64,000 nucleotides of DNA, from assembly GCF_050920415.1 (NCBI RefSeq), contig NZ_CP169309.1. One strand, 5' to 3'. The translations under genes were made by a program, and so were the position numbers. Position 1 is the first letter of the stretch. Each line of letters opens with the position of its first letter. The notes beneath the pieces were generated by a model. That model was not told the DNA's origin, made no database searches, and saw nothing but the letters and a program-made list of their open reading frames with translations. This document shows positions 21,934 through 62,600 of the stretch, in pieces. Origin of the DNA: Escherichia coli (lineage in GTDB: Bacteria; Pseudomonadota; Gammaproteobacteria; Enterobacterales; Enterobacteriaceae).

Positions 21934-22363
21934 ACGTAAACTCTTTCCGGTTGTTGTCGATAGCTCTATATCCCTCAACCGGAAAATAATAATACCAAAA
22001 TGCTTAGCGCGGCTAATAATCGCCTAATCCAAACGCCTCATTCATGTTCTGGAACAGCCGCTCAAATGTACTCAGGATACGCGGTTCGCTGATTTCCAGG
22101 AAATTGTCGTAATTCAGCGACCTGTCCCGTGTATCACGGGCCTGCTAATCCATCAAGGAATGCATTGCGGAGTGAAGTATCGAGTCAAGCCAGATTTCGC
22201 GATCAGGATTCTGTGTGATGATTACATTGCCAGGCCCGGGGCTGTTTAGTCATCGCCGCACAGTGCTGAGATTTCAACCTGTTGCAGGGAAAATGAGTAG
22301 ATTTAGGGCAAGTGTGCTGCCAAACCCAACTTTTACGCGGGGAAGGTAGATTTCGTTGGAAGG

Positions 22364-22383
22364 ATAAATGGTGTCCCCTGCAG
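22364..22383. repeat. prophage att core, torI-proximal copy (ATAAATGGTGTCCCCTGCAG)
   Basis: Exact 20-bp direct repeat of 62521-62540, which covers the 3' end of argW. Confidence 0.8.
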
Positions 22384-22456
22384 ACATCTACTTGAAGCGA
22401 CAGGGGATTGATTGGAATGGTGTTTTTTAGATGTGAGAAATATTTTACCCGCTATT

Positions 22457-22657
22457 TTACCCATTGGCGCGGCTTAAGAGCTTATTTTTGAATTCACAAT
22501 GGTCACGATATAACCATCTTGCTCGCCCGTGGATAACTTTGGCTTTTGGCAGGTCGCCGGACTTAATCCGGTCATAGATGAAGGTTTTACCAAAGCCAGT
22601 ATCGGCCATGATGAATTTCAAATCAACCAGTGAATCAGGCTGTAGTTCGTGTTGCAT
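22457..22657 (-). CDS. torI: TorI-like excisionase / recombination directionality factor (AlpA-Xis family)
   Basis: 66 aa; recognised as KplE1 TorI; sits at prophage end opposite the integrase. Confidence 0.8.
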   Translation of the reverse strand: MQHELQPDSLVDLKFIMADTGFGKTFIYDRIKSGDLPKAKVIHGRARWLYRDHCEFKNKLLSRANG

Positions 22658-22702
22658 GAGTGCTATCTCCGAATAGGGAATCGAACCTGCAAATCAGGCA
22701 AT

Positions 22703-22722
22703 AAAAAACCGCATTGATGCGG
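22703..22722 (-). terminator. intrinsic terminator at the end of the early-left operon, just upstream of torI
   Basis: Reverse strand: CCGCA-TCAA-TGCGG hairpin followed by TTTTTTAT. Confidence 0.5.
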
Positions 22723-22782
22723 CGATGGTAGGTCTGGATATCATTGAGAAATGAACAGGCCTCATCGAGTGTGAGGCTGTGG

Positions 22783-23127
22783 TTAGTCCTTGCGTAACTC
22801 GCTAATTCTTCTGTAAGTCTCTGGTGCTTTGTTTCCGTGTATCTTCATTTCAGACTTCAACAGAGCAACGAGGGAATCCCATTCGTTGAGGATGCCTTTG
22901 AATGCCGGAACGCGCTTTGCAACCTTGTTGAATGAATCTCTGATTTCTGGAATCTGCTCAACAAGTGCAACGCATCGTCTGAAATCGGCTGCGTCATGGG
23001 GAGCGCCGAAGCTATGACCATAGATATTCTTTTTCAGTCCACATGCGATTGAGGCAAGAGTTGCGCTACTGATGCCAACATCGCCAGTCGATTGCCATTT
23101 CAAAACCTTCATAGCCAAATCTGACAT
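22783..23127 (-). CDS. hypothetical early-left (ea-region) protein, 114 aa
   Basis: ORF in leftward operon; no family recognised. Confidence 0.45.
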   Translation of the reverse strand: MSDLAMKVLKWQSTGDVGISSATLASIACGLKKNIYGHSFGAPHDAADFRRCVALVEQIPEIRDSFNKVAKRVPAFKGILNEWDSLVALLKSEMKIHGNKAPETYRRISELRKD

Positions 23128-23227
23128 TTCTTGTCTCCATAAAACAAAACTCGCCGTAGCGAGTTCAGATAAAATAAATCCCCGCGAGTGCGAGGATTGT
23201 TATTCACCTTTAACGGCAAGTTGCAGG

Positions 23228-61206: not shown

Positions 61207-62400
61207 TCACTCCACCTTTTCATCAATCCAATCCGCCCACCACTGCATCATTTCTCTGCGCTTATCGAGATACTGAGCATGGTTGTAAATTCCGCGCACA
61301 GATCCGCCGTTGGCATGTGCCAGTTGCACTTCAATAGCATCAGCAGGCCATTCGTGCTCGTTCATAATCGTGCTGAATTCATGCCTGAATCCGTGACCGC
61401 TTTCCAGACCTTCATAGCCGATTTGTTTGATCACAAGCAGTACCGCGTTCTCGCAGATTGGCTTCTTCTTATCGTTGCGCCCGGCAAAAACAAACTCTGA
61501 TACTGGTTTGGTGATTGAGCTTAGCGTAGTGAGAAGTTCAACCACCTGGTCCGACATCGGGACAACATGAATCTTGCGTCCCTTCATCACACTGGCGTCG
61601 ATAGTGATAATCCTGTTTTCAAAATCGACGTTCTTCCATTGCATGGAACGAAGCTCTTTCGTTCTTAGGGCTGTGTAGCGTAAAACTTTGGTCGCAATGA
61701 GCGATACGATACTTCCTGAAAATGTTGCCAGTGCTTTGTTGAATGCAGGGATCTGGTCTGCAGGAAGAAACGGGAAGTTCTTCTTGCGGTATCCCTTCAT
61801 GGCGTCAGCAAGGTCAGGTGCCGGGTTATATTTAGCCCTTCCGGTGACAATAGCGTAACGGAAAACCTCGCCGCATCTTCTGCGTGCTTTGTTGGCTCGC
61901 TCCATTGCACCGCGATCTTCAAATCTGCGGATTACTTCCAGAAGTTGCATCGGCTCAATATCCTGAATTTCAAGGCTGCCGATGATAGGTAAAATGTCGT
62001 CATCAAACATTTTGGCAAGTTCAGTTGCATAGCCTACTGACCAGACTTGCTTCTTGTGCTCGTACCATTCCTTGTAAATCGCACTAAAGGAATTGTTGTT
62101 AGACGAAGCCTTTTTCGCCTTTACCGGATCGATACCAACCGAGATGTCTTTCCTCGCAGTCCATGCTTTATCCCTTGCCTCCTGCAAAGTCATAAGCGGA
62201 TATTTTCCGACGGTCAGGATTTTCTCCTTACCGTCAATCTTGTAGCGAAGCTGCCATACCTTTTTCCCTGACACAGGGACATAAAGGTACAGGCCATTAC
62301 CATCGAGAAGGCGGTATGGTTTTTCTTTCGGCTTTGCTGCTTCAATCTGCTTAACGGTGAGCATGGGTAAAAATCCGGTGGGTAAAATTATTTTATCCAC
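61207..62400 (-). CDS. intS: tyrosine integrase (IntS / KplE1-Sf6 type); likely start is the internal ATG at 62364
   Basis: C-terminal catalytic signature R..HGFRHEFST..Y; adjacent to argW. Confidence 0.9.
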   Translation of the reverse strand: MDKIILPTGFLPMLTVKQIEAAKPKEKPYRLLDGNGLYLYVPVSGKKVWQLRYKIDGKEKILTVGKYPLMTLQEARDKAWTARKDISVGIDPVKAKKASSNNNSFSAIYKEWYEHKKQVWSVGYATELAKMFDDDILPIIGSLEIQDIEPMQLLEVIRRFEDRGAMERANKARRRCGEVFRYAIVTGRAKYNPAPDLADAMKGYRKKNFPFLPADQIPAFNKALATFSGSIVSLIATKVLRYTALRTKELRSMQWKNVDFENRIITIDASVMKGRKIHVVPMSDQVVELLTTLSSITKPVSEFVFAGRNDKKKPICENAVLLVIKQIGYEGLESGHGFRHEFSTIMNEHEWPADAIEVQLAHANGGSVRGIYNHAQYLDKRREMMQWWADWIDEKVE

Positions 62401-62520
62401 TTTTTACCCGTCATGGTGTGCGGCTGTCAACGATCTGACGCGAACCATGACGAACTGTGAATCTACGGAAGGCTTGATATTCAGGGGATTTTGCGGACTG
62501 GTACGGATGGGAGCGAACTG

Positions 62521-62540
62521 ATAAATGGTGTCCCCTGCAG
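62521..62540. repeat. prophage att core, integrase/argW-proximal copy
   Basis: Exact repeat of 22364-22383. Confidence 0.8.
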
Positions 62541-62600
62541 GAATCGAACCTGCAATTAGCCCTTAGGAGGGGCTCGTTATATCCATTTAACTAAGAGGAC
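62526..62600 (-). tRNA. argW: tRNA-Arg (argW)
   Basis: Reverse strand reads GTCCTCTTAGTTAAATGGATATAACGAGCCCCTCCTAAGGGCTAATTGCAGGTTCGATTCCTGCAGGGGACACCA, 75 nt with T-arm and CCA end. Confidence 0.9.

Follow-up and report, generated by a model that had tools for sequence, protein, structure and literature searches.

A conserved box that matches the T arm of the target tRNA precedes the excisionase gene torI in an argW prophage of Escherichia coli

Why would a prophage that sits in the end of a tRNA gene carry a further piece of that tRNA in its interior, upstream of its excisionase gene? This question is raised by 64,000 nucleotides (nt) of Escherichia coli DNA (assembly GCF_050920415.1, contig NZ_CP169309.1; hereafter the window), in which a 40,136-bp prophage of the HK620/Sf6/KplE1 type lies in argW at positions 22384-62519. 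The tRNA gene itself, tRNA-Arg(CCU), was placed by ARAGORN at 62526-62600 on the minus strand, and torI (22457-22657, minus strand), which encodes the 66-aa excisionase or recombination directionality factor (RDF), stands at the prophage's other end. We found that the 16 nt at 22677-22692 (minus strand), here called the T-loop box, are identical to the argW T arm at 62540-62555. The original prediction took this 16-mer and the att core for the two parts of a longer tRNA homology that torI had split, or for tRNA-like sequence used on both sides of torI. Our comparison demonstrates that the match is real, conserved, fixed in position, tandem in some phages and independent of the att core, and its pattern of conservation suggests that the function is probably regulatory.

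The 16-mer, GGAATCGAACCTGCAA, is exact at both places and is the longest exact match of the argW region to the prophage interior, where 0.0012 shared exact 16-mers are expected. No third match was found in the window even when 2 mismatches were allowed (shuffled sequences gave a mean of 0.07), and the predicted T-arm match is confirmed to the base. The att core, described before as 20 bp at 22364-22383, does contain 15 nt of the argW end but is one base longer: the exact repeat is 21 bp, GATAAATGGTGTCCCCTGCAG, at 22363-22383 (attR copy) and at 62520-62540 (attL copy, the 3' end of intact argW), and consists of the 15 nt of argW plus 6 nt downstream. Core and 16-mer share the G at 62540 and together tile 36 contiguous bases of the argW region (62520-62555) in the same orientation. 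Hence, the claim of about 35 nt of argW identity in two pieces stands for this prophage, although the exact tiling is a property of the E. coli-type module only. The gap between the two pieces is 293 bp (22384-22676) and holds the entire torI open reading frame (ORF), as claimed.

Since the box resembles a generic T loop, we considered whether the match arose by chance. GGTTCGA(A/T)TCC is a very common T-arm sequence, and many phage tRNA genes match the 3' half of argW at 80-90% identity. However, the expected and shuffled counts above are far too low, and the match recurs in diverged lineages as well as upstream of torI in K-12 KplE1, HK620 and Sf6, where the 16-mer is identical. Chance, which had been named as grounds for abandoning the prediction, is already refuted and retains practically no probability.

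To place the box among relatives, torI-type loci were sampled from one genome per species, from IMG/VR and from phage records, and a second Xis subfamily was reached via Salmonella phage g341c. Across 12 diverged TorI-type lineages, we found 89% pairwise identity for the 12-nt box, with the octamer GTTCGATT (22679-22686 in the window; scrambled counterpart, CAAGCTAA) invariant, whereas identity was 38% for the 12-nt left flank, 40% for the 6-nt spacer and 56% for 4-fold synonymous sites of xis. The g341c-type Xis is 51% identical to TorI, and its modules (L308 2100-2760; L309-L388) have the same argW-type core, their own arm-type repeats (GGGCATAA vs GGGTAAAA) and the same box upstream of xis. 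With both subfamilies combined (76 distinct leaders from 193 contigs), the octamer is intact in 59 leaders, has 1-2 mismatches in 3 and is missing from 14; in the E. coli type, it is changed in 1 of 77 contigs.

The position of the box is likewise fixed. In all box-bearing lineages, the family consensus TTCCAGGTTCGATTCCC lies 4-7 nt 5' of the xis Shine-Dalgarno GGAG, which reads at 22667-22670 (minus strand) in the window and is invariant in the leader alignment, and the order of the leader cassette is intrinsic terminator, box, 4-7 nt, GGAG and ATG. Over the 16-mer, the family consensus (TTCCAGGTTCGATTCC) and the argW T arm share 15 of their 16 positions; hence, the T arm of the target tRNA is the likely ancestor of the box. 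The conserved part in the window is CAGGTTCGATTCC (22677-22689), and the T-arm/box sequence takes the form GGTTCGATTCC. The TTGC edge, by which the match becomes a perfect 16/16, is found in the E. coli type only, and the edge bases differ elsewhere.

Copy number varies. The box is single-copy in the HK620 genome, and tandem copies with a 14-16 bp period occur in Erwinia/Pantoea-type phages (L007 2305-2336; L115, L116, L118 and L124). One tandem pair is GGGAATCGAACCTGAC/GGGAATCGAACCTGTG with a 16-bp period, the period is 14 bp in L115, and one L124 copy has drifted to GTTCGGTT. The box is absent from the modules of Chronis, vB_EhrS_49, L018, L022 and L023. Absence from related phages had been named as a second ground for abandoning the prediction; it holds for these several modules and fails for the 59 of 76 leaders that keep the octamer. 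In four leaders (L376, L381, L384 and L388), the box is cleanly missing, with the terminator T tract and ATTGCCTG/ACGCCTG running straight into GAGATAATGATATG, as if a deletion had occurred naturally between short CTGG/CCGG repeats. In addition, the same C-to-A change at a CpG (TTCGA to TTAGA) is seen in the degenerate boxes of L110, L335 and L339 and in the hexamer adjacent to the att core (TTCGAT/TTAGAT); this recurrence could reflect a single binding protein that tolerates the change in both places, or a site that is prone to mutation.

The leader that carries the box is also mobile. Its 60 nt are 59/60 identical in front of a TorI-type xis (L016) and a g341c-type xis (L358), with the break exactly at the ATG, and both the coding sequences and the DNA further upstream are unrelated. 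Hence, the leader moves as a portable expression cassette. In the window, a terminator scan placed an intrinsic terminator (GCCGCATCAATGCGG plus a T run; 22703-22723, minus strand) at the end of the upstream early-left genes, and the torI leader starts at its T tract. This terminator and a 114-aa ORF upstream of the torI leader (both within 22695-23127) belong to a separate mosaic module, which begins near 22695 and is 90-98% shared with HK97, HK022, 434 and mEp235, and other E. coli-type prophages have a different, HK620-type terminator hairpin at the same position.

We then asked whether the box is a remnant of the attachment site. By the original prediction, argW homology once ran unbroken through about 36 nt of an ancestral attP, the torI module entered exactly between the T-arm and acceptor parts of this homology, and the 16-mer is the displaced, non-functional remainder. 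The two pieces do tile argW in one orientation in the E. coli type, and the box is clearly tRNA-derived. However, nothing is missing beside the core: most related attP and attR sequences have TTCGAT in the P arm immediately 5' of TGCAGGGG, aligned base for base with the T loop of the tRNA (for example, TGCAAATTCGATGTATGCAGGGG in L016 vs TGCAGGTTCGATTCCTGCAGGGG in the tRNA), and the TTCGAT columns match the tRNA in 0.5-1.0 of lineages while the neighbouring columns match in about 0. Hence, a contiguous but decayed T-arm homology belongs to attP itself, and the 16-mer comes on top of it as a further copy. Moreover, the exact tiling exists in one lineage only and its TTGC edge is not conserved, a relic would not hold 89% identity while its flanks drop to about 38%, and neither tandem copies nor a fixed Shine-Dalgarno distance is expected of a relic. 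In phages searched for at least 35 nt of uninterrupted argW 3' homology, all long matches were host argW inside prophage records; no true attP and no relative with uninterrupted homology, for which the original prediction had advised a search, was found. The insertion of torI into a longer tRNA homology, which is further contradicted by the modules that lack the box, is thus largely refuted by the core-adjacent hexamer and keeps only a slim chance, and the box is a separate, independently maintained second copy rather than a continuation of the attP homology.

The box is also remote from the known recombination site. In vitro excision works with a 135-bp attR whose inner end was set by primer attR-IHF2 (PMC3509656). 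We mapped this primer to 22461-22480, so the 135-bp attR ends inside torI, and the box lies 200 bp beyond this inner end (22480; PMC3509656). Hence, the box is not part of the recombination site for in vitro excision, and, from its position outside the functional attR, it would not be needed for strand exchange. The alternative claim, that tRNA-like sequence is used on both sides of torI, holds in part: the box is tRNA-like beyond chance and, because it is under purifying selection, is probably used, but it is not used as part of the 135-bp attR. Long-range RNA pairing of the box with the core copy downstream of torI was rejected, as only GCAG/CUGC (4 bp) can pair.

In KplE1-type modules, the integrase is constantly on at a low level and expression of the RDF gene decides excision (PMC2951348), and control of RDF gene expression, on which the excision switch rests, is not yet understood (Panis et al., PMC2951348). 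A conserved non-coding element of a mosaic module is most simply read by proteins of the module, by universal host machinery or by the mRNA itself. We give about an even chance to the proposal that the box is a tRNA-derived cis control element of the torI leader that is read by IntS or TorI. By this proposal, the box would act in cis on torI expression, the step deciding excision, and one of the module's own DNA-binding proteins would bind it to curb leaky or read-through excisionase expression. IntS would be the leading candidate reader and TorI the second, with IntS ranked slightly above.

IntS is a candidate because the box contains a whole B-type half-site, TTCGATTCC. In its sequence, the att core resembles a canonical site of tyrosine recombinases, with inverted 6-bp half-sites round a 7-bp overlap, TGCAGGG; the putative crossover region is 22370-22388 (attL counterpart, 62527-62545; minus strand) and reads GATGTC/TGCAGGG/GACACC in the tRNA sense. 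The inverted repeat is perfect in Salmonella phage g341c (GGTGTC/TGCAGGG/GACACC), and both half-sites are altered together in the Edwardsiella lineage (GGCGTA/TGCAGGG/AACGCC). With this layout, strands would be exchanged where the T stem meets the acceptor stem. On the same layout, the B half-site is exactly the conserved part of the box, and the ancestral stretch would be the bacterial half-site B that flanks the 7-bp crossover in attB. In the predicted half-sites C and B alike, TT(C/A)G(A/G)T stands equally far from TGCAGGG, and the C-to-A variant is found in boxes as well.

TorI is a candidate because the box contains a GTTCG pentamer, at 22682-22686 (minus strand), in the same tRNA-sense orientation as the known TorI sites. 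Five such sites (GTTCG/GTCCG/GATCG) lie in two blocks on attL and overlap the intS promoter, PintS (PMC2951348), which TorI represses (PMC2951348). We mapped them in the window, on the minus strand, to 62514-62518 (I1), 62494-62498 (I2), 62451-62455 (I3), 62441-62445 (I4) and 62431-62435 (I5); in the tRNA sense they read GTTCG, GTCCG, GTTCG, GTTCG and GATCG, and the same layout is found in four other lineages.

Several observations weigh against reading by either protein. For TorI, the 25 I-sites of five lineages read AGTTCGC(C/A) or GTTCGT and never GTTCGA, whereas the box always reads GTTCGAT; TorI binding is highly cooperative on site arrays (PMC3509656), yet the box is single in most lineages; and no TorI site was reported at the T loop, which the published fragments of attL include. 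For IntS, half-sites of the B type are the weaker ones (GATTCC vs G(A/G)TGTC as consensus), and poor binding is to be expected of a half-site that stands alone. The fixed Shine-Dalgarno distance fits a role at the RNA level equally well. Finally, because 14 of the 76 leaders are without the box, mostly where xis abuts an upstream ORF and once by a clean deletion, the box is dispensable for a working module.

A more specific form of the IntS proposal is that the box is a decoy B half-site bound by IntS, perhaps bridged from arm-type sites past torI so that the gene is looped; we hold this to be fairly unlikely. Just past the torI stop, we found direct repeats, GGGTAAAATAGCGGGTAAAAT (22442-22462, minus strand), inside the 135-bp functional attR. 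They are kept in all TorI-type relatives, with GGGCATAA repeats in their place in g341c-type modules, and are probably the arm-type (P) sites of IntS, an assignment carried over from attL, the only side on which PMC2951348 marks arm-type sites. With such a decoy, constitutive IntS would hold the excisionase gene off while TorI represses intS, forming a mutual-repression toggle. A toggle between IntS and TorI would also explain why the leader cassette travels with modules among unrelated phages.

Three other roles compete with control by a module protein. One is at the RNA level: the 3' part of the box, (A)UU(U)CC, or UUCGA, would pair with the Shine-Dalgarno region, (U)CGGAG(A/G)U, and damp read-through translation, or the box would be a T-loop-like recognition or processing signal. 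The box lies on the strand that is transcribed and is 4-7 nt 5' of the Shine-Dalgarno and downstream of the terminator, with no sigma-70 promoter between, and it is lacking from leaders of another kind and from those in which xis touches or overlaps an ORF upstream. Single-sequence folds pair the box with the Shine-Dalgarno in most lineages (AUUUCC:GGAGAU, 6 bp, in L016, L117, L119 and L121), and Shine-Dalgarno accessibility is under the shuffled mean in 12 of 16 lineages; in the Edwardsiella lineage, a 6-bp hairpin encloses the box, and its stem is kept in L110 despite a changed loop. However, neither a consensus structure nor a covarying pair came out of RNAalifold on 17 leaders, occlusion does not differ significantly from that in composition-matched shuffles (z mostly -0.3 to -1.5), and the pairing registers vary between lineages. 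Furthermore, anti-Shine-Dalgarno pairing leaves the invariant GTTCGA unexplained, and the closing pairs of a true T loop are lost in L115 and L117. Rfam at E<=10 returned nothing relevant for 22300-22900, and ARAGORN found argW as the only tRNA or tRNA-like gene in the window. We consider an RNA element unlikely on balance.

The remaining two roles come from phage annotations. Under the first, the box would belong to a cII-activated pI-type promoter for the establishment of lysogeny, with the 16-mer overlapping the second TTGC of the cII site. The HK620 record (AF335538) marks an integration promoter at 1664-1702 and a cII site at 1689-1701, which correspond to 22664-22702 and 22689-22701 of the window, and Sf6 has the homologous pI promoter annotated. 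But K-12 and 22 of the 77 E. coli-type contigs have TTAC in place of the first TTGC, the TTGC repeats are absent in other box-bearing lineages, and a promoter here would yield excisionase along with integrase, the wrong output for integration. Lambda-type cII sites (pRE, pI and paQ) read TTGC-N6-TTGC; the repeats here have N5, not N6. There are no sigma-70-like hexamers either: a search for -35/-10 pairs with 16-18 bp spacing on either strand of 22300-23200 found none. A cII promoter is therefore very improbable. Resemblances to sigma-54, sigma-32, IHF and TorR-box sites, judged by eye, were also rejected, as none is conserved beyond the E. coli-type leader. Under the second, the leader would be a conserved linker, a boundary sequence that serves as a hot spot for swapping xis-attP-int modules by homologous recombination and has no role in expression. 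This agrees with the bsq2 boundary sequence annotated in Sf6 over gene 18 and the leader, with the near-identical leader that breaks at the ATG of two xis genes, and with the mosaic joints at 22695-22723. Nevertheless, second-order selection would not fix an 8-nt core while the 6-nt spacer and left flank vary, 8-13 nt are too short to drive homologous exchange, and the tRNA identity and tandem copies are left unexplained; we regard a linker without other function as improbable.

Control by a module protein remains our preferred explanation, and the rest of the module is of a well-known kind. The window carries the argW module of KplE1 (CPS-53), HK620, Sf6, CUS-3 and Kapi1 (Panis, Ansaldi), with nothing different in the module itself: the 16-nt core, the five TorI sites on attL, the location of attP between xis and int, and the placing of torI at one end of the prophage and intS at the other are all shared. 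TorI is 100% identical to that of K-12, and its gene lies beside attR, 74 bp from the core. At the other end, intS (61207-62364, minus strand) adjoins argW and is transcribed away from the tRNA; its promoter overlaps attL (PMC2951348). IntS (385 aa) is 99% identical to K-12 IntS and matches NCBIfam PRK09692 (integrase domain-containing protein) below the curated cut-off and tyrosine-recombinase models more weakly; we call it a P4-type tyrosine integrase after the cd00801 INT_P4_C note on a related phage integrase. Rho control of torI is said to have been described by Menouni in 2013 in PNAS. By BLAST, the torI/attR stretch is present in 1597 of 5426 complete E. coli genomes (~30%) and in HK620, Sf6, Kapi1 and many P22-like phages, and relatives of the module are known from Salmonella, Citrobacter, Erwinia, Pantoea and Edwardsiella.

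Two copies of the 16-nt core published for KplE1, CTGCAGGGGACACCAT (PMC2951348), are present, at 22368-22383 and 62525-62540, overlapping the argW 3' end. The identity block here runs 6 nt past the tRNA 3' end (GATAAA; 22363-22368 and 62520-62525), which makes it 21 bp vs 16-17 bp in K-12 and Kapi1. Because the empty argW site of another strain (L004 2495-2503) reads GGTATC where the identity block has GATAAA, the attR side of this lysogen took phage-arm bases. A 43-aa ORF that runs across the att core (22333-22464, minus strand) has homologues in HK620 (hkaB) and Sf6 (gene 17). Integration would break it, and it is unlikely to be a genuine gene. Ahead of the prophage, cscK and cscB occupy the left part of the window. 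Stx2a-converting phages use the opposite end of argW from the IntS family, and those at argW (LC645409; L185 1-140, L186 1100-1260) have a 24-bp duplication, TTATATCCATTTAACTAAGAGGAC, of the tRNA 5' end. For the target tRNA of the Edwardsiella lineage, a 14-mer scan gave mostly chance matches and one tRNA (L279) in the tRNA cluster of an unrelated phage, and a search with a more specific pattern returned two attP forms only.

The box differs from the tRNA-derived sequences usually met at prophage ends. Direct repeats of tRNA 3' ends at the ends of prophages and islands were reportedly described by Reiter in 1989 and by Williams in 2002. The 21-bp core (22363-22383) is exactly of that kind and is annotated in K-12, at the KplE1 attR, as the pseudo-tRNA fragment pawZ; in contrast, the box is not at a junction and not in the crossover identity. 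Since it copies the T arm, which lies beyond the crossover on the bacterial side, it cannot be a product of integration. P2 Cox, 186 Apl, P4 Vis and TorI at PintS are small winged-helix RDFs that repress promoters via short repeated sites; the box holds the TorI pentamer and is tandem in some phages, but it has no evident promoter. The predicted GATGTC/TGCAGGG/GACACC layout is like the lambda-type C-O-C'/B-O-B' sites of heterobivalent tyrosine integrases, whereas the box would be a B half-site plus the remainder of the T loop, 294 bp away from the core and without an overlap region or a partner half-site. We know of no described lambda counterpart of such an isolated half-site copy.

Earlier work passed close to the box. 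In PMC2951348, PMC3509656 and PMC8787464, protein sites are mapped only on attL and on the 135-bp attR that ends inside torI, and a T-loop box upstream of torI is not mentioned in these three papers. The pI/cII annotation of HK620 (Clark et al. 2001, AF335538; 1664-1702) and the bsq2 annotation of Sf6 (AF547987; 18404-18431) cover the box but rest on TTGC repeats and mosaic joints, and the tRNA identity is not noted there.

Hence, the box is a real, selected feature within a very well-known module and not a new kind of system. For the att core, the comparison suggests a 7-bp overlap, TGCAGGG, between inverted half-sites, and it shows the tRNA homology of attP to be contiguous but decayed. No other non-coding element of the torI leader is as well conserved as the box, which K-12, HK620 and Sf6 all carry and which provides a defined target of 8-13 nt in the step that is said to control excision (PMC2951348). 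If the toggle between IntS and TorI is true, the decision to excise would be set independently of the phage immunity region.

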